A stretch of DNA of 63,388 bases, the filler included, from Stramenopiles sp. TOSAG23-6 (lineage: Eukaryota), in assembly GCA_900128565.1 (NCBI GenBank). It is 51 parts of 51 records of this genome, joined end to end, with 100 filler letters (N's around TTAATTAATTAA, not from the genome) between each part and the next. Parts side by side here need not be neighbours in the genome. Positions count along the whole stretch, not along the records: positions 16,261 to 17,409 come from LT639603.1; 50 more parts are not named here. One strand, written 5' to 3'. Of this stretch, positions 2,346-34,699 are shown in pieces. The notes under the pieces are model-generated. The model was given only the letters and a program-made list of their open reading frames with translations, was not told the origin of the DNA and ran no database searches. Within the stretch, counting starts at the first letter, position 1; the number at the start of each line of letters is the position of its first letter. The position numbers and the translations under genes are program-made.

Positions 2346-2685
2346 ATTGATATAAAGCAGTGAAACTAAAACTATATAAAGCAGTGAAACTAAAACTATA
2401 TAAANNNNNNNNNNNNNNNNNNNNNNNNNNNNNNNNNNNNNNNNNNNNTTAATTAATTAANNNNNNNNNNNNNNNNNNNNNNNNNNNNNNNNNNNNNNNN
2501 NNNNTTTTTTTTTTTTTTTTTTTTTTTTAATTTTTTTTTTTTTTTTTTTTTTGAATATTTCATAACAAAACTTCGTTTTAATTTATACAAATCAAAATAT
2601 TAGTCTATTCATTTATTATACATATCTAAGAAGTATTACAATAAGCAGCACTGGAGGAAAGAGATCTACAACACTATCAATAAAT

Positions 2686-3597
2686 TTAAAATTGTTGTTC
2701 TGGAAGACCACTGTGAAAATTAAACATAATTACTTTCCCATTATCAACAACTGCCCAAAGCAAAGAAACAGAATCAACAGTTTCTGATGCTGCTAGTGCT
2801 GCATTTATACAATCAGGTGTTGGTGGTGAGGAGGTAAAATCACAGATAAATACACGAAAATTCGGAGGGTAATTCTTATCAATAATGACAGACTCATTAG
2901 CATTAGAGTTAGGAACAGACTCATGGCTTACACTTTCTTTTACTTTTGTTTCCATGACGTCATTGTTTATTAAATTTTGAGTTTCTCCAGCCATAGGTTT
3001 TGACACAATATTTTTCTTCGTACACAAATATTCAGAATTACCATCAACTTCAGTTTGTGAATTCGTACAATGTTGTTGTCTTACTTCGAGACCATACCGT
3101 TTATTAAATCTAGTATTAGGCATCCACACATCAAATGCACACCACTTTTCTAACCATGAAACCGGTGAATTAGCCTTGATAGATACAATTCTAGGCGAAG
3201 TTGAGGTTAACTCAAATGCTTTCTTACACTGTAACACAACGGGAGGACTATTTCGATACCGCCTAACCGTGTATCCAGCATTACGTAGATGAGAGTAGAC
3301 TAATTGACACTGCATAGACACTGCATATGGAGTCAAAAGGGGACCATATATAAAATGTTCGTATCCCCAACGAACGTCTAACTCTTCTCTTTCTTCATCC
3401 ATGTTTCCTTCCGCTATGTTAGGTTTAATATATAGTCGGAGTTTTCCAAGATTCATCAGAAAAAGGGCTTCCTCTGGGTATAGGAAATGCAAAGCACTAT
3501 GATGGAATCCAAGAGACCGAAGATATCGACCGCGTTGAGTCGTGACCTGTATGGTGTTATTGATTGTATCCCAAGAAGCTTCACATACTTTTACCAT
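2686..3597 (-). CDS. Sen54-like protein (identical contig copy 3)
   Basis: Contig 2505-3656 is identical to 1-1152. Confidence 0.7.
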   Translation of the reverse strand: MVKVCEASWDTINNTIQVTTQRGRYLRSLGFHHSALHFLYPEEALFLMNLGKLRLYIKPNIAEGNMDEEREELDVRWGYEHFIYGPLLTPYAVSMQCQLVYSHLRNAGYTVRRYRNSPPVVLQCKKAFELTSTSPRIVSIKANSPVSWLEKWCAFDVWMPNTRFNKRYGLEVRQQHCTNSQTEVDGNSEYLCTKKNIVSKPMAGETQNLINNDVMETKVKESVSHESVPNSNANESVIIDKNYPPNFRVFICDFTSSPPTPDCINAALAASETVDSVSLLWAVVDNGKVIMFNFHSGLPEQQF

Positions 3598-3756
3598 ATT
3601 GATATAAAGCAGTGAAACTAAAACTATATAAAGCAGTGAAACTAAAACTATATAAANNNNNNNNNNNNNNNNNNNNNNNNNNNNNNNNNNNNNNNNNNNN
3701 TTAATTAATTAANNNNNNNNNNNNNNNNNNNNNNNNNNNNNNNNNNNNNNNNNNNN

Positions 3757-9912: not shown

Positions 9913-10101
9913 NNNNNNNNNNNNNNNNNNNNNNNNNNNNNNNNNNNNNNNNNNNNTTAATTAATTAANNNNNNNNNNNNNNNNNNNNNNNNNNNNNNNN
10001 NNNNNNNNNNNNTTCAAAAAAAAAACTTAAATTCGTTAGGTACAAAATTTCGTATGAAAAATAAATTCGATTTTTTTGTGAAAAAAAATAATAAAACATA
10101 C

Positions 10102-10900
10102 ATGATCTTGGATTATCTCGATGTTTTAATTTCCCAAGTCCTAAAGAAGGCAATGAACTCTGGAATAAACACAATTTACCACATGTATTGTAGAATATAT
10201 ATATATATAAATGATTGTTGTATTGTGTTATTATTGTATTATGTTTGTGTGTGTGTACAGTAAGTACGTCTACATATATTTTTTTTTTTGATTTTTTTAA
10301 TTTTTTAGAAAACAAAAAAAAAACGAAAAAAATGAAAAAAAAATATTTCGTGTAAAAAAAAAAAAAAAAGATATAGACAAGATACCTATATGATGCATTA
10401 CTTGGAATGCGCTCTGAAGTGCAGTTCCCATTACTGTTTCAACCTCACGGCTACCTTCAAACATTGAAGGCAACTGCTGCAATAAAAGATCAATTTGCTT
10501 TCTGGAATCTTTTAAGTTCACTAAGAGATCATCTGGTGCAGGTAAAAAAACATCCGATATCTCAGATACAACCAACATTTGAGGTTGATTTAATTGAGGT
10601 TTTAAATTGTAAAAATGAATGGATGAATCGAAAGTTATAAAACCAACTTGAGTCCTTGGTGAACCTGGTAACTTATCAAGTGATTCTGTTATAGCTTGCA
10701 AAGCGCAACGGAGCATACCAGACACTTGAGCGTTGTACGAAACATCCAAAACATACAAAATTAAAAATATGACAAATCAAGATTTTCTTTTGTAAGTCTT
10801 TAGTTCTTTTGTTTGTATAACAAAAATTAGATACTATATATTTTTTTTTTCTGTGTAAAAAAAAAATCTTTAAAAAAACAAAATCTATGAAAAATCTCTG

Positions 10901-10935
<35 letters not shown>

Positions 10936-11105
10936 TGAAACGTTCATAATAAACATTTTACATACAAACATATACGCAGGAGCTTGAGGAGGGCGGACCA
11001 TATACTCTGCAGGTGCAACAATTTCAACCTGACCACGACGTAATTCAGGCCTTTCTTGTAAATCTGTACGACGTCCTTCTTTTCCAATATGGCAGAAATA
11101 AGCGG
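10102..11105 (-). CDS. SEC24: COPII coat protein Sec24, three internal exons (11105-10966, 10752-10386, 10182-10102)
   Basis: Spliced product reads YFCHIG..GRRTD..ERPEL..G.VE..AP.EYMVRPP.AP.YMF|VLDVS...RTQVGFITFDSSIHFYNL...HHIG|GKLCLFQSSLPSLGLGKL. Confidence 0.93.
10183..10385 (-). other. GT-AT intron (Sec24)
   Basis: AG|GTATCTT...TTCTACAATACAT|GTGGTAAA gives HHIGGKLCLFQ. Confidence 0.8.
10753..10965 (-). other. GT-AT intron (Sec24)
   Basis: TTT|GTATGT...TTTTGTAT|GTTTTGGAT gives YMFVLDVS. Confidence 0.8.
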
Positions 11106-11262: not shown

Positions 11263-12412
11263 ACTCCTGACAGACAACATACACGAATTGTGGAAGACGT
11301 TGGAGAATAGGATGGAGATATCTTTTCCCCATGCCTTGAGGGATCGCGTTTTGATGCCATTATGTTTCTTTTCATATTCGAATCACTTGTGTTGCCATTA
11401 TGTAGCTGTGAAGCACTATCTGCACTAGGAATGGTCGCAGCATAATTTTTTGGGGCAAATGCTCCCACGTCACAGACAGGTGTGGACGTATAAATCTTAT
11501 AATAAATGGTAGGTGGAAAGACATATCCACCAAGGCGGAATCGAACATACATTTTACATGCTGGATCCATTAAATTTGCTTCAGATCCATTTATAGAACG
11601 TAAAATTTTTGCTGGGTCACCGGAATTGTGGAAACGAATCAAATCACGATAATATTTATATATCCTTCTATTTGCATGAGACCTCCACTGATTCTGCACC
11701 AAAAGGGCTGCTTTAATTTCTTTATCTTTATATTTTTTGCGACTCATGTATTTTGGAAAAATATTTCAAAATTCTGCTTCTAATCGTTTTGATGCGCGAT
11801 ACACATACTGTATTTCCATTGCTGCTATATGATAAATTGTAAACCTTTGCCATGTAAAATGACGGCGTAATCGCCACATCCAATACGTTGCTTGTATTTT
11901 TGAAGCAGCAAATCCTTCAATTCCTTCCTTTGAATATGTATTTTGGAAAAATATTTCAAAAAAAAATCGTTAGGTACAACATTCCGTACGAAAAAAAAAA
12001 CGAATTTGAAAAAAAATAAAACATACATTCCGAAAGATATTTCATGTACTGCTCCTGAAAAGGTAATGCTCTAATCCATTTGGACTCTACTTTTTCTATC
12101 TTATTAATTCGGGGACCTTCCCAACCTGTCAATAAAACGCGCTTTCGGGCGTAGTGTCCACGAAACTTTGTTTGAATGATTCGCACAGCTAAACTTTGGG
12201 CAGCCATTGGCATTTTCCATGGTTCGCGGATGATATCCAATGTAGTTTTTTTACCCATACGGGCAAATGAGGACATCCATATTTTAGTTAATCCCATTTT
12301 CTGTGGAATGTATCTCCCTTCTTTCTTTAATTTGCGTTCAGCTCGCCTTGCTTTTCGACGTTCTTCTTTTGTAGTCCCGGCATTCAGACGTTTTTTTTTC
12401 TTTTTCTTTGGA
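11263..12412 (-). CDS. IQ-motif protein, C11orf65/MFI-like, multi-exon, partial
   Basis: Several IQ motifs plus YYRDLI.F...GDP..ILRSIN..EA.L.D.A...VRFRLGG..FPP.IYYKI. Confidence 0.8.
11936..12026 (-). other. GT-AT intron, near-consensus copy (91 nt)
   Basis: GAAT|GTATGTTTT...TTCGTACGGAATGTTGTACCTAACG...GAAATATTTTTCCAAAATACAT|ATTC puts the IQ motif AASKIQATYW in frame. Confidence 0.85.
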
Positions 12413-16160: not shown

Positions 16161-16314
16161 NNNNNNNNNNNNNNNNNNNNNNNNNNNNNNNNNNNNNNNN
16201 NNNNTTAATTAATTAANNNNNNNNNNNNNNNNNNNNNNNNNNNNNNNNNNNNNNNNNNNNCGTACGAAATTTTGTACCTAACGATTTTTTTTTGAAATAT
16301 TTTCCAAAATACAA

Positions 16315-17298
16315 AAACTCTACTAGCTGATAGAATTGCTAGATTTGATGGACATATATTAGCTATGGTTCTTCAAACCCGTTTTAGAGACTTTGCAGTT
16401 GCAATTGCAAAGGGTATTTTGTTCAGGTCTTTCCTCGCTGTATTTGATGCGGGTACAATTTCATGATGAATTTCGAATTTATTTTGTTTTCGTACGAAAT
16501 GTTGTACCTAACGATTTGTTTTAACCAAAAGAAAAATATTTTTTTCACAATTCATGAATTTCTCGACACAAATGGTATCTCAATTTAGAATGGCGAAAAC
16601 GTCTGAGACATTATTTGATGAATTTATATTTTACCACAGACAACTTTTTTGTTATTAAAAATAAGGACTCGAGGATTGATGACCCTCAAAATCGAATTAC
16701 GGAACAAGTAGAGCAACTTTCTATAGTGATAACCGATCTTTGGACATCTTTATTGCGACCGTCATTTGATATTTGTTTCAATTCCTTCATGTACGCTTCA
16801 TTTTCATTTTCATTATAATTTTGTTTTTCATTTTCATTTTCATTATGATTTTTTTTTTTTTTTTTTTTTTTCATTTTCATTTTCATTTTCATTATGATTT
16901 TCATTAATTCGTACCAACAATTTTGTTTTAAAATATTTTTTTCACAATTTATGCTACTTAGAGTATTAGGCACATGTGGAGCAACTTATATTTCAGTGTA
17001 TATGATAGGTGCTGCACTTGTAATGCAAGTATTTGTACCAAATTTTCGTTCTCTTCGAAAGATTGAGTTTGATCTCGAAGGTAAATTTCGTTTTGTACAT
17101 TCTCGATTACTTCAACACACAGAGTCCGTAGCATTTTTTGGTGGTGGTGCCGTTGAAGAACGTATTTGCAATTCTCGTTTTGATGATCTTGCTAATCATA
17201 TCGAAACGTCCCAATTACAAAAATTACGATTTAACATATTCAATAATTTTATAATAAGGCGTACTCCTGATGTTATGGCATTTTATCTTCGTATGTAT
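16315..17298 (+). CDS. Peroxisomal ABCD-family transporter membrane domain, three exons
   Basis: TLLADRIA..., L.WRKRL.HYLM.LYF, IDDPQNRIT, EGKFRFVHSRLLQHTESVAFFGGG (EAA motif). Confidence 0.92.
16453..16555 (+). other. GT-AT intron (ABCD)
   Basis: GCGG|GTACAA...GTTGTACCTAAC...TTTCACAATTCAT|GAATT. In-frame stops on both sides constrain the junction, and the intron contains no AG after its last 25 nt begin. Confidence 0.8.
16791..16952 (+). other. GT-AT intron (ABCD)
   Basis: TTCAT|GTACGC...TTCACAATTTAT|GCTA gives NSFMLLRV. I found no AG dinucleotide in this intron. Confidence 0.85.
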
Positions 17299-17509: not shown

Positions 17510-18362
17510 TCCAGAATGGAGGAGTCATGTCACGTTTACTGTCCTTGGCGATTACTTGGCTAAAATGGCTTGTACGTTTTCAAAATTGAATTTCAAATTA
17601 TTTATTTTTTATACCAAATGTTGTACCTAACGAATTTCGAACTAGAAATATTTTTTCCCAATATTTGGCTATCTTCCTCTATTGGTTCCAAAGAATATTA
17701 TGTAGGTCTTGATGTTGCAGATAAGGAAGATGCTATGCGCATAATTGGAAAACAGAAAGCAGAACTTGAAACGATGAAAGTGAAACTTGCATATAAATGG
17801 AATATTATTGAGAGCGAAATGATTGATCATTTCATTGAAGATGTTTGGACTAGCAGGGGCTAACACAATAGCACAGAATGCTGTCAAGACTTTTCAGTCG
17901 CCTGCTATGTATTTCCGCGTTCCATTGCATATGCAAACTACGGGTTCGTTCCTGACTTCTTTTGCTACAGATTGGGCTGAGAATAAGTGGGTTGAAGGGT
18001 CAACAATGTTTGCCGGTAAAACGGCATGTGAAAAATTAAGTGAGGATGTTGAGTTGATAAGAGATGTGAGTATTGAATATGATCAATTCGCAAAATTCAC
18101 AGAGGATGAGAAAGAATGGTTATTACATGCGGGTGATATTGCAAGTGTTGACAAGTATGTATACGCATTAACAGGGAAAAAATACAGTGCATTGGAGAAG
18201 ATGGTTAAAAGCGCGGCTAAATATTTTTCAAAAATTGATCATAATAAGTATTACGAGGGTGCTGTAGATGGTTTTATTTTCGATTATTCTGTTGGTGGTG
18301 ATGCAAAACAGTTTATCAAGGACTTCAATGCGGCAAAAGAGGCTGTTGTAGCATGTTTGTAA
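17510..18362 (+). CDS. Hypothetical protein with one intron (donor 17572) and a probable frameshift near 17830-17860
   Basis: Overlapping ORFs 17570-17863 and 17823-18362, with a branch motif at ~17622. Confidence 0.5.
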
Positions 18363-24997: not shown

Positions 24998-26144
24998 AAC
25001 GACATGCANANCGTNCTGCTATNGTAACAGANTCAATAGATAATCTACAAAAGAGTCTTGAAAGTTTAGAAAATAGTGAAACAAAAAGTAATGTAGTAGT
25101 CGGTAAAATATTGCAAAATCCATGTAGAGTTGCATTTGTATTCACTGGCCAAGGCGCACAATACTCAAATATGGCTTTTCAAATGTACCAGAACAACACT
25201 ATTTTTCGTGATGCAATGGAAGAATGCGACAAGTTCTTCGTTGAGTATATGGAAGTCTCTCTAGTTTCGAAGTTATATAAACAACTTGATACCGATGAAT
25301 CCAGCAATACAAACATATCATTAAATTTAAGTGATCCTACATTCGCACAACCAGCATTATTTGCTGTGGAGTATGCACTTTGTCAAGTCATTCAGAAGCA
25401 ACTCGGTGTTGAACCAATTGCGGTAGTGGGACATAGTCTAGGTGAGTTTGCCGCTATGTGTATAGCAGGTATGTTAACATTATCTGAGGCATGTGCCCTT
25501 GTTGCGGCTCGTGGTAAAGCAATGTCGAAACTTGCACANTCANATAGCACAGAAACTGGAACAATGGCAGCTGTATGGGAATCTGAGGAAAATNTTGAAA
25601 TANTTTTAGCTTCAGCAAATATCANAGATGTCGTTGTAGCAGTTGTCAATGGTCCTAAAAGTGTTGTANTTAGTGGTTCAGTNGAANCAATAAATAANAC
25701 NCTTGTTTTATTACACTCGAAATCAATAAAGGCAAANCGACTTGGTGTNACNAGTGGATTTCANAGTGAATGTGTTGAATCGGCAATNCCTGATATTCGT
25801 TCTGCAGCCTCAANCATTCTTCAAGGACATACCAAGNTTNATAATAATATAAAGTTTGTTTCAACTGTTACNGGTGTAGAGCTTTTATCNANCGAAAACA
25901 AATATCGAAATCCAGAATATTGGGCTTCTCAAGCACGAAATAAAGTAAAATTTGTCACTGCAATGNAAAATGTNCTNGGCGANCTTGAATGTAATGTTAT
26001 CATCGAGATTGGACCTCATCCACANTTATGTNCACANATTGANGCAATAGCNGAATCTATTTCATGTGAAGTACGAGTAATNCCCTCAATNAAGANAGAT
26101 GGAAATGATTGGAAGAATATNTGTAAAACAGCNGCAATGCTTCA
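24998..26144 (+). CDS. Type I PKS/FAS acyltransferase (AT) domain, partial (copy 1)
   Basis: FVFTGQGAQY, AQPALFAVEYAL, GHSLGE, NGP, YW..QAR..V.F and EIGP motifs. Confidence 0.93.
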
Positions 26145-26244: not shown

Positions 26245-27391
26245 AACGACATGCANANCGTNCTGCTATNGTAACAGANTCAATAGATAATCTACAAAAG
26301 AGTCTTGAAAGTTTAGAAAATAGTGAAACAAAAAGTAATGTAGTAGTCGGTAAAATATTGCAAAATCCATGTAGAGTTGCATTTGTATTCACTGGCCAAG
26401 GCGCACAATACTCAAATATGGCTTTTCAAATGTACCAGAACAACACTATTTTTCGTGATGCAATGGAAGAATGCGACAAGTTCTTCGTTGAGTATATGGA
26501 AGTCTCTCTAGTTTCGAAGTTATATAAACAACTTGATACCGATGAATCCAGCAATACAAACATATCATTAAATTTAAGTGATCCTACATTCGCACAACCA
26601 GCATTATTTGCTGTGGAGTATGCACTTTGTCAAGTCATTCAGAAGCAACTCGGTGTTGAACCAATTGCGGTAGTGGGACATAGTCTAGGTGAGTTTGCCG
26701 CTATGTGTATAGCAGGTATGTTAACATTATCTGAGGCATGTGCCCTTGTTGCGGCTCGTGGTAAAGCAATGTCGAAACTTGCACANTCANATAGCACAGA
26801 AACTGGAACAATGGCAGCTGTATGGGAATCTGAGGAAAATNTTGAAATANTTTTAGCTTCAGCAAATATCANAGATGTCGTTGTAGCAGTTGTCAATGGT
26901 CCTAAAAGTGTTGTANTTAGTGGTTCAGTNGAANCAATAAATAANACNCTTGTTTTATTACACTCGAAATCAATAAAGGCAAANCGACTTGGTGTNACNA
27001 GTGGATTTCANAGTGAATGTGTTGAATCGGCAATNCCTGATATTCGTTCTGCAGCCTCAANCATTCTTCAAGGACATACCAAGNTTNATAATAATATAAA
27101 GTTTGTTTCAACTGTTACNGGTGTAGAGCTTTTATCNANCGAAAACAAATATCGAAATCCAGAATATTGGGCTTCTCAAGCACGAAATAAAGTAAAATTT
27201 GTCACTGCAATGNAAAATGTNCTNGGCGANCTTGAATGTAATGTTATCATCGAGATTGGACCTCATCCACANTTATGTNCACANATTGANGCAATAGCNG
27301 AATCTATTTCATGTGAAGTACGAGTAATNCCCTCAATNAAGANAGATGGAAATGATTGGAAGAATATNTGTAAAACAGCNGCAATGCTTCA
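26245..27391 (+). CDS. Type I PKS/FAS AT domain (identical contig copy 2)
   Basis: Same sequence and same N positions as 24998-26144. Confidence 0.93.
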
Positions 27392-27539: not shown

Positions 27540-27718
27540 CCGGTAAAAAAAAAAATCGAATATTTTTTTTTATAGTAAATTTTGTACCTAACAAACAATT
27601 TTAGATTTTTTTTTTTTGAAATTTTTTTCCAAAATATTTATTTCTTTTCATACGAAATGTTGTACCTAACAAACAAATTTAGATTTTTTTTTTTTGAAAT
27701 ATTTTTCCAAAATACATG

Positions 27719-28465
27719 ATCTACAAAGAACAATTGAACGTCATATTACAAATTAAAATATATGATATTTTGGATTCAACAAACTTTCCGTATGACAATC
27801 AAAACAATTCGATTACTATTGATCAACAATTGAGAAAACTTCAAGAGACGAATAGTTTGAATTCATCGTGGTCGAAAGTGGCTGTGTATCATGTATGTGA
27901 ATGATTTTTTTTCATACGAAATTTTGTACCTAACAAAATTTTTAAAAAGTTTTGAACTTTTTTTTTTCATACGAAATTTTGTACCTAACAAATTTTTTAA
28001 AAAGTTTTGAACNTTTTTTTTTCACAATACATTTATTCGATTTAAGTACAAATGGGAACCAAACAATCGGTCTTGCAACTCTTGCCGAACCAAGTTATAA
28101 TGGTTTGTGTACAAAAAGCAATGCCTCTATTACCCGGGTGGTAAAATCAAATCCAAGTTGGGTGACTTTTGCCCATGAAATTGGACATAATCTTGGAGGT
28201 CGTCACGTATGTTTTTACTATTAGGGTTAGGGTTGTTTTATAATTTTTTTTTTTTTTTTTTTTGGTAAAAAAATTTTGTACCTAAGAAAAATATTTTTTT
28301 TTTGAAAATAAATATTTTTCCACAATTTATGTATGGGATATCGGGCCAGGGGAACAAGCTGGTATTGGTGGAATAATGGATTATGGAGATAAATTACAAC
28401 TTGATTATTCATATCAATTTCACCCTTCGAATAAAAAATATGTCTGTGGAGTTTTGAAAAAAAGA
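27719..28465 (+). CDS. M12B/reprolysin-type zinc metalloprotease, three exons (introns 27893-28032 and 28207-28330, both GT-AT)
   Basis: AVYH|LFD...IGLA, TFAHEIGHNLGGRH|VWD...GGIMDY supply the zinc motif and Met-turn. Confidence 0.9.
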
Positions 28466-30103: not shown

Positions 30104-30633
30104 ATGAAAGAGAAAGATCAAATTTAGCTTGGGATAAAAAACAACAACAACAACAACAACAACAAAATATTCAGCACTATAAAACTAAAACATCCAAACA
30201 TTTTAACCCTAACCCTAACCCTACAACATTTAATAATACTAGTCAAATATCAAAAGGTTCATTTGAACAATCATTTAAAGTACAAAAATCTTCTTCTTTT
30301 GTACATAGTACTACAGAAACTCATTGGAGAAACCCACAAAATATTAAAAATATTAAAAATATGAAAAATATGAAAAATAGTAAAAATATTAAAAATACAC
30401 GAAATATTTATCATGGGTCAGGAAGAATTCCGCCACGTGGCACACCACCAATACGAAGTTTTAATACAAAAAATACATACAGACACAGAAATGATTCTCT
30501 TTCGTCTACTACACGAAATCTTAATATCCTGGAAAATAGAACTTCACATCGTAACCCTAACCCTAATGAAAGAAGGACAACAAGAACATTACGTAGGACA
30601 AAATCATATACAAATGTAAGGTATAAACCCTAA
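30104..30633 (+). CDS. Low-complexity terminal exon (poly-Q, NP and KNI repeats); contig repeated at 31229-32373 and 32474-33618
   Basis: Follows the branch motif at ~30057. Three identical contigs. Confidence 0.55.
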
Positions 30634-31252
30634 CCCTAATGAAAGAAGGACAACAAGAACATTACGTAGGACGAAATCATATACAAATGTGTAAGGTATA
30701 AACCATCATAAGTCTTTTTAAAAATTATGTAGGATTACATTGTATACAAATGTGTAAGGTATAAACCATCATAAGTCTTTAAAAATAAAATAAAAAATAA
30801 ATCATTATACAATCATTTTACGTAGTATGAAACATTTTACTATTAAGAATAACATTACTTATATTCAACGTTTCATACTTTACAACTAGGTAGGTAATAA
30901 CTAGTGCTCTACGTATCTTTAGATTCTGTACCATTTTTTTGTACTTTGTTTTTTAGGTATGAAAAAATGGTACGGAATCCCCTACTTGATTATATTGAGG
31001 AATTAATTAAGTCTACTTTTACAATTTACTTGATGTGAAGATGATTATATTTTATTTGTTATATTTTTATTTTTTTTTTATGTATGGACACAACCACCAT
31101 ACATTCATTTATTTTGTCCCTAGGAAGANNNNNNNNNNNNNNNNNNNNNNNNNNNNNNNNNNNNNNNNNNNNTTAATTAATTAANNNNNNNNNNNNNNNN
31201 NNNNNNNNNNNNNNNNNNNNNNNNNNNNTTTTTAAAATTTATCTAACTTTTT

Positions 31253-31291
<39 letters not shown>

Positions 31292-32497
31292 TAGATAATT
31301 TTGTACCTAACAAATTTCACATTGTTGACCTATTTTTGTACAAAATATATGAAAGAGAAAGATCAAATTTAGCTTGGGATAAAAAACAACAACAACAACA
31401 ACAACAACAAAATATTCAGCACTATAAAACTAAAACATCCAAACATTTTAACCCTAACCCTAACCCTACAACATTTAATAATACTAGTCAAATATCAAAA
31501 GGTTCATTTGAACAATCATTTAAAGTACAAAAATCTTCTTCTTTTGTACATAGTACTACAGAAACTCATTGGAGAAACCCACAAAATATTAAAAATATTA
31601 AAAATATGAAAAATATGAAAAATAGTAAAAATATTAAAAATACACGAAATATTTATCATGGGTCAGGAAGAATTCCGCCACGTGGCACACCACCAATACG
31701 AAGTTTTAATACAAAAAATACATACAGACACAGAAATGATTCTCTTTCGTCTACTACACGAAATCTTAATATCCTGGAAAATAGAACTTCACATCGTAAC
31801 CCTAACCCTAATGAAAGAAGGACAACAAGAACATTACGTAGGACAAAATCATATACAAATGTAAGGTATAAACCCTAACCCTAATGAAAGAAGGACAACA
31901 AGAACATTACGTAGGACGAAATCATATACAAATGTGTAAGGTATAAACCATCATAAGTCTTTTTAAAAATTATGTAGGATTACATTGTATACAAATGTGT
32001 AAGGTATAAACCATCATAAGTCTTTAAAAATAAAATAAAAAATAAATCATTATACAATCATTTTACGTAGTATGAAACATTTTACTATTAAGAATAACAT
32101 TACTTATATTCAACGTTTCATACTTTACAACTAGGTAGGTAATAACTAGTGCTCTACGTATCTTTAGATTCTGTACCATTTTTTTGTACTTTGTTTTTTA
32201 GGTATGAAAAAATGGTACGGAATCCCCTACTTGATTATATTGAGGAATTAATTAAGTCTACTTTTACAATTTACTTGATGTGAAGATGATTATATTTTAT
32301 TTGTTATATTTTTATTTTTTTTTTATGTATGGACACAACCACCATACATTCATTTATTTTGTCCCTAGGAAGANNNNNNNNNNNNNNNNNNNNNNNNNNN
32401 NNNNNNNNNNNNNNNNNTTAATTAATTAANNNNNNNNNNNNNNNNNNNNNNNNNNNNNNNNNNNNNNNNNNNNTTTTTAAAATTTATCTAACTTTTT

Positions 32498-32536
<39 letters not shown>

Positions 32537-33783
32537 TAGATAATTTTGTACCTAACAAATTTCACATTGTTGACCTATTTTTGTACAAAATATATGAAAG
32601 AGAAAGATCAAATTTAGCTTGGGATAAAAAACAACAACAACAACAACAACAACAAAATATTCAGCACTATAAAACTAAAACATCCAAACATTTTAACCCT
32701 AACCCTAACCCTACAACATTTAATAATACTAGTCAAATATCAAAAGGTTCATTTGAACAATCATTTAAAGTACAAAAATCTTCTTCTTTTGTACATAGTA
32801 CTACAGAAACTCATTGGAGAAACCCACAAAATATTAAAAATATTAAAAATATGAAAAATATGAAAAATAGTAAAAATATTAAAAATACACGAAATATTTA
32901 TCATGGGTCAGGAAGAATTCCGCCACGTGGCACACCACCAATACGAAGTTTTAATACAAAAAATACATACAGACACAGAAATGATTCTCTTTCGTCTACT
33001 ACACGAAATCTTAATATCCTGGAAAATAGAACTTCACATCGTAACCCTAACCCTAATGAAAGAAGGACAACAAGAACATTACGTAGGACAAAATCATATA
33101 CAAATGTAAGGTATAAACCCTAACCCTAATGAAAGAAGGACAACAAGAACATTACGTAGGACGAAATCATATACAAATGTGTAAGGTATAAACCATCATA
33201 AGTCTTTTTAAAAATTATGTAGGATTACATTGTATACAAATGTGTAAGGTATAAACCATCATAAGTCTTTAAAAATAAAATAAAAAATAAATCATTATAC
33301 AATCATTTTACGTAGTATGAAACATTTTACTATTAAGAATAACATTACTTATATTCAACGTTTCATACTTTACAACTAGGTAGGTAATAACTAGTGCTCT
33401 ACGTATCTTTAGATTCTGTACCATTTTTTTGTACTTTGTTTTTTAGGTATGAAAAAATGGTACGGAATCCCCTACTTGATTATATTGAGGAATTAATTAA
33501 GTCTACTTTTACAATTTACTTGATGTGAAGATGATTATATTTTATTTGTTATATTTTTATTTTTTTTTTATGTATGGACACAACCACCATACATTCATTT
33601 ATTTTGTCCCTAGGAAGANNNNNNNNNNNNNNNNNNNNNNNNNNNNNNNNNNNNNNNNNNNNTTAATTAATTAANNNNNNNNNNNNNNNNNNNNNNNNNN
33701 NNNNNNNNNNNNNNNNNNTACCTAACAATTTTTTTTTTTTTTTACGGAAAAAAAAAATTTTGAAATATTTTTCCAAAATATAG

Positions 33784-34699
33784 GTGTTGGTACTGGTACA
33801 ATGATGGGTGAAATTGATGTTGAAAAAAATGGCGAATCTCCACAGATTTTTTATAATGATGATGAGGAAGATATTGAAAGCAGACCAAATAGTTCATGGT
33901 CAACACAGTCAAGTTTTCAACAACACCAAAAAGAAAAAAAAGCAAATAAAATACGTCAAATGATTGATCAAAATACAAAACAAAATAATTATGAAAAAAA
34001 ACAAAACCCTAACCCTAATAATGAAAACACTAACCCTAATCCTAATGAAAATCCTAATGATAATCCTAGTCCTACTAATGATGATGATGATGATTCTGAT
34101 GATGACATCATTGCGATACGTAATATGAATGAATCTGGAAATGGTAGTACATTTACAACGACATCATTGGACAGTTTTGTGCGTGTCTGGGACATTGGAC
34201 CTGGAACGTGTACGTTTTCATCATGAATTTATTAATTTAATTTTTTTTTTTTTGGTTTTTTTCGTAAAAAAATTTCGTACCTAACGATATTTTTTTTTTT
34301 GGTAAAATTCGTGTTTTTTCACAATACATGTGTAGCAAAACTCGATGAAGTTCATACAGCCCATGTAACACAATCGTTACTCAATATCGATGGTACAAAA
34401 TTATTTACATCTTCTGAAGATAAAACAATAAAAATTTGGAAAAGAGAATCAAATCAAATGTATGAAACTATACAAACTTTAGTAGGACATAATAAATCGA
34501 TTTCGTGTTTATGCACATGTATGTCAACAACCTTTGATGTTGATGAATTATTTATGGAAGATAAAAATACTAAAAATACTGAAAATAGTAAAAATAGTTT
34601 AAGTGAACACTATTTATTTAGTGGTTCTATTGATACTACAATAAAAATGTGGAGCGTGGGTGGTACCGAAACATCTGGGAAACTCATTCGGACATTAAT
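33784..34699 (+). CDS. WD40 repeat protein, two exons (upstream AG acceptor at 33783; GT-AT intron 34210-34329)
   Basis: SLDSFVRVWDIGPGT|CVAKLDEVH...SSEDKTIKIW...GHNKSI...SGSIDTTIKMW. Confidence 0.9.

Follow-up and report, generated by a model that had tools for sequence, protein, structure and literature searches.

What recognises an intron whose most constant feature is an internal box, GTACCTAAC, and whose 3′ end appears to be AT and not AG? To our knowledge, few rules of eukaryotic gene expression are more strongly conserved than the pairing of the U2 motif GUAGUA with the branch site and the 3′-terminal AG, the GUAGUA motif itself being almost universal. The window (that is, the whole stretch of DNA analysed here, 63,388 bases) consists of 51 contigs of 1,136–1,152 nt, sorted by length and joined by N44-TTAATTAATTAA-N44 (for example, at 1153–1252); seven of the 51 are exact duplicates, and the 44 unique ones hold 50,879 non-N bases. 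To view it as one locus is wrong, as the contigs are short (~1.15 kb), unrelated pieces of a fragmented, AT-rich eukaryote assembly, with a GC content of 23–34% in 4-kb windows and 18–44% per contig. By eye and by search, they carry eukaryotic open reading frames (ORFs) for Sec24, a WDR19/IFT144-like protein, an AAA ATPase and an ABCD-type transporter, together with WD40, ankyrin and Sel1 repeats and Cys-rich repeat proteins, the closest matches in protein collections being 55% identical at best (AAA ATPase ORF; WDR19/IFT144-like exon). Among public runs, sequence words of the window are shared by three small runs of one coded organism and by sea-water metagenomes and metatranscriptomes and, judged from this sharing, the source is a marine protist; the clusters matched in a protein atlas are generic to eukaryotes.

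Several contigs have peculiarities of their own. Contig 58542–59679 is identical to its reverse complement and shows the same ORFs on either strand (that is, an inverted chimera of the whole-genome-amplification kind), and contig 24998–26144 (duplicate 26245–27391) carries a polyketide-synthase-like acyltransferase ORF with dozens of single N throughout. The Cys-rich, EGF-like ORF at 46139–47279 (−) holds a direct duplication of ~600 nt, so that the same block of ~200 amino acids is read twice. Telomere-like repeats, (CCCTAA)2–3 or (TTAGGG)2, occur within genes in 22 places, many of them in frame and reading NPNPNP.

Conservation of the box

Exact matches to GTACCTAAC on both strands number 40 against 0.13 expected (100 shuffles, largest 2), and 38 copies lie in the unique contigs. 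One-mismatch matches number 12 against 8.6 expected, and eight of these share the upstream context ...AAATTT(T/C) (G1>A and C4>T twice each, A3>T once and C9>G three times). Counting these eight with the exact copies gives 46 unique boxes, or 48 with duplicates, in agreement with the initial annotation, which had counted roughly 45–50 and whose listed positions were all recovered with an offset of 1–3 nt.

Two ways of finding introns that do not start from the box lead back to it. On the donor side, the window contains 28 GTAYGTTT sites, of which seven were set aside (four judged not to be donors, namely one exon start, two coding stretches and one antisense site, and three cut by a contig end or N); all 21 evaluable sites lead into a box, with the exact 9-mer in 17 and one mismatch in four, and the donors are of the GTAYGT type that had been proposed. 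On the acceptor side, there are 17 A[AC]AATACAT sites, 12 of them preceded by an exact box, which lies at 33–55 nt in 11 cases; upstream of the site at 28033 there are two tandem copies, at 98 nt and 43 nt. The remaining five sites comprise two introns without a good box and three chance or antisense occurrences. In the 14 single-box introns the distance from the box to the inferred 3′ end is 32–55 nt, and in 13/13 complete introns the box lies on the strand of the flanking ORFs; both the spacing and the orientation with the host gene thus hold as first described.

Within the 21 donor-ascertained introns, the 9-mer departs from its consensus at 4/189 positions (~2%) and the longer segment from −7 to +2 at 22/378, versus 396/1008 (39%) in the surrounding 51 columns (Fisher p about 1e-30). 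The median pairwise identity of the flanks between box copies is 54% (703 pairs). As the box is far better conserved than its flanks, we consider it to be under selection, and a function is likelier than a mere relic of a transposon. These observations support the view that the box behaves as an intron-internal, strand-specific and selectively maintained signal at branch-site distance.

The box also sits in a small palindrome, TTTGT-ACCTA-ACAAA (for example, 48907–48915 (−)), that could form a 5-bp hairpin with an ACCUA loop; the flanking positions of this hairpin are without clear covariation. A variable, donor-like hexamer (C^GTACGA, in which the caret marks the cut here and below, or CATACG/CATAGT) is found 7–13 nt upstream of most boxes (for example, 16261–16270).

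Intron anatomy and the 3′ end

The 13 complete box-bearing introns are 91–151 nt long and, like nearly every intron seen in the window, are built on one plan, T^GTAYGTTTT ... AAATTTT-GTACCTAAC-RA ... T-run ... TTTCACAATACAT^ (Table 1). Listings of the flanks give the same order at greater resolution: an exon mostly ending in AT, GTAYGTTTT, a T-rich stretch, the box region TTTTTC(A/G)TA(C/G)(G/T)AAATTTT-GTACCTAAC-(A/G)A, a T-run, then GAAATATTTTT(C/T)(C/A)(A/C)AATACAT and the next exon. All 13 begin with GTA(T/C), that is, with GT and a hexamer complementary to U1/U6 (GTRAGT or GTATGT in U2-type introns), as U2-type introns do. A pyrimidine tract, also a property of U2-type introns, is present past the box as a run in which T is the consensus from +4 to +18 (45–76% frequency), and the 3′ box TTTYMCAATACAT^ sits about 40 nt past the branch-like box. 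Tandem duplication of the box-bearing segment within single introns (27584–27670 and 27926–27989) places two boxes 55–78 nt apart.

Table 1. Introns, boxes and other features of the window (positions along the whole stretch; a caret marks the cut)
Position	Strand	Feature	Detail
16261–16314	+	Last 54 nt of an intron	5′ part lost at contig start; ...CCAAAATACAA (...ATACAA), then exon AAACTC...
16267–16284	+	Putative extended branch-site box	AAATTTT-GTACCTAAC-GA; 9-mer at 16274–16282
16453–16555	+	Complete 103-nt intron, ABCD-like transporter gene	GTACAA...box...TTCACAATTCAT^; cut in frame
11936–12026	−	Complete 91-nt intron between IQ-motif exons	GTATGT...box (33 nt from end)...AAAATACAT^
17572–17666	+	Complete box intron	In-frame 3′ end ..AATATTT^ or ..AATA^; sole non-AT/AG end of 13
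27893–28032	+	140-nt intron	Box-bearing segment tandemly duplicated; boxes at 27926 and 27981
34210–34329	+	120-nt intron, WD40 gene	acgt^GTACGT...box...ACAATACAT^gtg; junction ...WDIGPGT-C-VAKLDEVH
44197–44292	−	96-nt intron	gctc^GTACGT...box...ACAATACAT^tac; no sliding ambiguity at either end; cut supported by frame only
45320–45439	−	120-nt box intron	..CCATACAG^; sole AG end among 13
45084–45187	−	104-nt intron	GTACGT...box (55 nt from end)...ACAATGTAT^
48867–49005	−	139-nt intron	GTATGT...box...CTACAATACAT^
52525–52675	−	151-nt intron, PDZ/PH-type gene	agct^GTACGT...box...CACAAATTAT^; donor set by hand
55621–55724	+	104-nt intron	GTATCT...box...AAAATGCAT^
60081–60181	+	101-nt intron	GTATGT...box...CAAAATAAAT^
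60586–60688	+	103-nt intron	GTATGT...box...CACAATACAT^
10753–10965	−	Sec24 intron without good box (best GTATCTAAT)	GTATGT...TTTGTAT^
10183–10385	−	Sec24 intron without box	tag^GTATCT...ACAATACAT^gtgg; junction reads I-G-G-K
11746–11808	−	Probable 63-nt intron (by eye)	Usual donor and 3′ box, degenerate middle (..CATCAAAAC..)
52344–52428	−	5′ part of box intron at contig end	Core matched by hundreds of sea-water RNA/DNA contigs
53410–53483	−	3′ part of box intron at contig start	Equally very high depth in public runs
1253–2404, 2505–3656		Duplicate contigs	= 1–1152
26245–27391		Duplicate contig	
31229–32373		Duplicate contig	
32474–33618		Duplicate contig	
39931–41072		Duplicate contig	
30207–30218; 37063–37080; 57610–57627; 28221–28232		Telomere-like repeats (examples)	

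Cutting at GT...A(T/G) joins the long flanking ORFs in frame in 12/13 complete box introns (binomial p 1.7e-5 against 1/3), and with the 3′ cut at +1 or +2 the through-ORF was shorter in 12/12; such frame tests fix intron length modulo 3, and the placing of the borders themselves relies on the conserved GTAY and on homology. The 3′ ends of the 13 are AT in 11 cases, AG in one and TT/TA in one, so that the AG typical of U2-type introns is found in only 1/13, and both Sec24 introns end in AT as well. Among 35 automatically called 3′ ends 26 are AT, and 14/35 of the introns so called contain an unused internal AG between the box and the 3′ end, the low-scoring calls in both counts being unreliable. 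Homology bears on the same point: the Sec24 exons that flank 10753–10965 abut at residues 165/166 of human SEC24B with no gap, and those that flank 10183–10385 align to human SEC24A up to residue 285, with a split-codon G at 286, and resume at 287, again with no gap, the resulting junction matching GG 286–287 by coordinates. Given that frames are kept in 12/13 introns and that the alignments to human SEC24 run without gaps over two more, the lost 3′ AG of the initial annotation looks real, its replacement being mostly AT (11/13 complete introns and the two Sec24 introns). On the basis of reading frames and homology, then, introns are probably excised as GT...AT in this organism.

The introns without a good box (10753–10965, 10183–10385 and probably 11746–11808) bear on what belongs to the splicing system and what to a repeated element. 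Removal of 11746–11808 is needed because an in-frame TGA otherwise splits two IQ-motif ORFs, and since excision seems to occur in at least three introns that lack a good box, the box is not strictly required in its exact form. As the Sec24 introns end in AT without a good box, the AT end would be a property of the splicing system rather than of the element alone.

The exact position of the cut is ambiguous at many sites. The exon ends in AT, as the intron does, at 18/24 donor sites, and cuts at GT...AT, TG...CA and AT...AC give the same product there. Contig 52344–53483 (one of the 44 unique contigs, searched in four of the nine runs) yielded no splice junctions; three RNA runs cover its repeated intron cores, which proved to be what these runs share with the window, and no exon. 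Removal at the RNA level by a spliceosome is what we infer from the sequence features.

A different account is that these introns are not spliceosomal and are excised through pairing of their inverted ends, as in euglenids and diplonemids, or eliminated at the DNA level in the manner of ciliates. The termini (AT)GTAT...ATAC(AT) are inverted repeats with a direct AT repeat, AG is absent, and the ends pair in a 6-bp stem in the minimum-energy fold of 5/9 introns, all of which would fit such a mechanism; nonconventional introns are reported from marine diplonemid single-cell genomes (PMC6221363 and PMC12621601). With the nonconventional introns of euglenids and diplonemids and the non-canonical introners of Amoebophrya, for both of which a transposon origin is suspected, the present introns share non-GT–AG borders, inverted ends and repeats that resemble target-site duplications. 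However, the folds are no stabler than those of shuffled sequences (z −2.5 to +0.24; 9/13 introns folded), none of these nine has a stable end-joining fold, and the T/C variation at donor position +4 is without compensatory change in the 3′ box. Moreover, GTAYGT, the 3′ box and the internal box are conserved here, whereas nonconventional introns, as described in PMC6221363, lack conserved borders and a U1/U6-type donor and have stably pairing ends; a marine diplonemid as the source was considered and set aside on account of this lack of conserved borders. Intron cores also occur in RNA libraries, one of them poly(A), although DNA can be present in such libraries, and somatic elimination is further opposed by the standard genetic code and by the presence of the introns in the DNA of a second, independent sample from sea water (run X2). 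We consider excision without a spliceosome very improbable.

Copy number and origin of the intron family

The intron family appears to be far larger than the window reveals. Of the 38 box copies, 18 are no more than 75 nt away from a contig end (p 3e-7), the assembler having broken at this repeat. When contig 52344–53483 was compared with public runs, 2,531 contigs of run X2 and 511–592 contigs of each of the RNA runs matched it, nearly all of them on its two intron cores, and the summed depth in X2 was 3e4–1.6e5 over these cores versus about 2–4 on single-copy parts. This suggests a family of ~1e4 copies, with the caveat that summed depths are a rough measure to which relatives may contribute. 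X2 contigs span two intron–exon borders, with 0 differences at one and 2 at the other, and the introns thus exist in the DNA of an independent sample; the cores in the RNA libraries indicate, at most, that intron sequence is present there. Among prokaryote genomes the core has one match, in an apparent coding region (by eye) of a Bacteroidales metagenome-assembled genome, which we regard as a chance match.

Some public contigs join the box, or the 3′ end of an intron, directly to AT+GTATGTTTT (52344–52430 and 53408–53483); most come from the DNA-like X2 and one or two from RNA runs, and one such joint leads from 52430 back 69 nt to 52362 (four contigs). Such joints, whose matching sides are short, may stem from nested or tandem copies, from circles or from cDNA of lariats. 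As the sides of the joints on contig 52344–53483 measure 18–31 nt and lie in repeats, no inference was drawn from them.

Similar introns recur in unrelated genes (46 box copies in 44 unique contigs, with a flank identity of only 54%), and their termini are short inverted repeats, GTAT...ATAC, of about 4–6 nt flanked by AT/AT (AT precedes the donor at 18/24 sites and ends most introns), a pattern that may just as well belong to the splice signals. Cores and flanks of the copies at 10043 and 44928 are 98% identical even though they lie in unrelated genes, a pair whose sequence is indicative of recent spread. An introner-like origin of the intron family is therefore likely from its sequence. Introner features are described in PMC4540971, bioRxiv 10.1101/2022.06.06.494994, PMC12130899 and PMC11282704. 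Like the introners of Micromonas, Aureococcus, dinoflagellates and fungi, the present introns share sequence across many unrelated genes and have splice signals of their own, an aquatic habitat and what may be inverted ends with a short flanking direct repeat. In contrast to introners, a single family seems to make up almost all the introns seen (46 box-bearing versus at least three without), most copies have diverged outside the boxes, and the end is AT, whereas the accepted 3′ sites listed in PMC12130899 are AG and AC.

Given such an origin, the box might be no more than the best-kept stretch of a transposon recently amplified in introns, with no role in splicing. The initial annotation had named a transposon-internal relic as the alternative to a branch site, and part of that alternative stands, in that the introns look very high-copy and introner-like: the family resemblance extends over the whole intron, including the inverted ends and AT/AT flanks, near-identical copies exist, the copy number in public runs is huge and the assembly breaks at the element. 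The part that is probably wrong is the absence of a function, as the box has diverged far less than the remainder of the element (2% against 39% in the donor-ascertained introns), complete copies are in sense orientation in 13/13 cases, and the distance from the box to the 3′ end is confined to a fixed window. A pure relic is, in our judgement, improbable.

Recognition of the box

We estimate a probability of about 0.7 that GTACCTAAC with its conserved flanks (AAATTTT-GTACCTAAC-RA) is the branch-site box of spliceosomal-type, introner-derived introns. In the mechanism that we propose, the donor would be read by U1/U6 and the box by the U2 snRNP and/or a branch-binding protein, the branch nucleotide would be the second A of TAAC in the box, and the second step would use the AT end of the 3′ box and not an AG. 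The introns would descend from a very high-copy, MITE-like introner family (inverted ends GTAT...ATAC, AT/AT flanks), and selection may have preserved their internal signals, since a copy in a gene survives only if it is spliceable and sense-oriented.

Budding-yeast-type U2 introns have the form GTATGT ... TACTAAC ... YAG. The present introns resemble them in a near-invariant GTAYGT donor, a near-invariant branch box with TA-CTAAC, their shortness and a distance from branch to 3′ end of tens of nucleotides, and differ in the extra C of the box (TACCTAAC), in about nine more conserved flanking positions, and in the use of AT in a conserved 3′ box where yeast uses the first YAG. Canonical U2 reads GUAGUAUC, and the branch site of U2-type introns, YNYURAY or UACUAAC, pairs with its GUAGUA with one bulged A. 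The box contains CUAAC, and its extra C would force a second bulge when paired with the canonical U2 motif, for which the duplex estimate is −3.0 kcal/mol versus −5.2 for a box one C shorter.

The initial annotation had drawn from this the prediction that U2 itself has changed, that is, that the box is read by a U2 with a co-varied branch-recognition sequence (GUAGGUAC; GUAGGUA(C) in place of GUAGUA) and that the longer helix offsets the missing AG. The CC of the box is invariant in 21/21 donor-ascertained introns, the window contains no GTACTAAC version of the box, and C would be the partner of the G found at the first position of the box (90%), all of which agree with such a change. A nearest-neighbour estimate likewise favours the hypothetical motif (−9.3 versus −3.0 kcal/mol for the canonical one), a model value that restates the idea and is no evidence for an altered U2. 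On the other hand, the eight one-mismatch variants are just as compatible with a bulged C and a canonical U2, and AAATTTT and the box could be protein sites (SF1/BBP, SF3b) or a founder-effect sequence kept by selection. A search of the window with Rfam models returned nothing at the gathering threshold and, at E<=5, no snRNA, be it of the major type or U11, U12, U4atac or U6atac. A scan of JGI metagenomes with a 20-nt pattern of the U2 5′ region carrying GUAGGUA returned one contig, which has no Rfam match or U2-like continuation and was set aside as a chance match, so that the sole match to the pattern is no U2. An altered U2 is a possibility to which we give tentative and less than even credence.

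The long conserved boxes and odd 3′ ends might instead indicate a transformed minor spliceosome, with U12-like introns read by an expanded U12-type machinery. The U12 branch box is TCCTTAAC, located ~10–20 nt before the 3′ end, and the donor is RTATCCTT. Like U12-type introns, the present ones have long donor and branch boxes of near-invariant sequence, tolerate non-AG 3′ ends and carry in the box a CCT-AAC that resembles TCCTTAAC. Unlike in U12-type introns, the donor is GTAYGTTTT and lacks ATCC, the box GTACCTAAC lies 32–55 nt from the end, far beyond the U12 distance, and a T-run follows it. According to PMC11282704, the 5′ and branch sequences of U12 introns are longer and better conserved and a distinct polypyrimidine tract is absent; the paper also cites the expansion in Physarum, a precedent in favour of this reading. 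We find this derivation hardly probable.

The spliceosomal, branch-site reading can also be set beside introns with comparably rigid signals. Introns of Trichomonas and Giardia have a GTATGT donor and extended, near-invariant signals, with the branch motif fused to an AG a few bases away; the present introns share the long, nearly invariant signals and the GTATGT donor, and differ in that the box lies about 40 nt from a non-AG end. By analogy, the introns would be closest to the yeast-type U2 intron in function, to introners in origin and to U12-type introns in their odd 3′ ends. In the openly accessible literature searched, neither a TACCTAAC branch box, nor UACCUAAC, nor genome-wide GT–AT introns are described. 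The box is a probable branch-site box in an apparently new variant of introner-type spliceosomal introns. The boldest form of this interpretation, in which the major splicing code of a free-living marine protist would have been remodelled throughout the genome (~1e4 introner-derived GT...AT introns, an 18-nt box with a UACCUAAC core, a co-evolved U2 with GUAGGUA and a conserved 3′ box in place of the recognition of AG by U2AF and second-step factors), seems to us unlikely when taken as a whole.

In summary, the shared GTACCTAAC box and the apparent AT ends of introns of ~100 bases suggest a retuned splicing system. If this is true, a lineage with a longer branch box and AT ends in almost all of its introns would be a natural experiment, showing the co-evolution of intron signals and spliceosome and a transposon family that imposes its own splice code on a genome. 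Gene finders that assume GT–AG would consequently mis-annotate essentially every gene here and in relatives within marine metagenomes.
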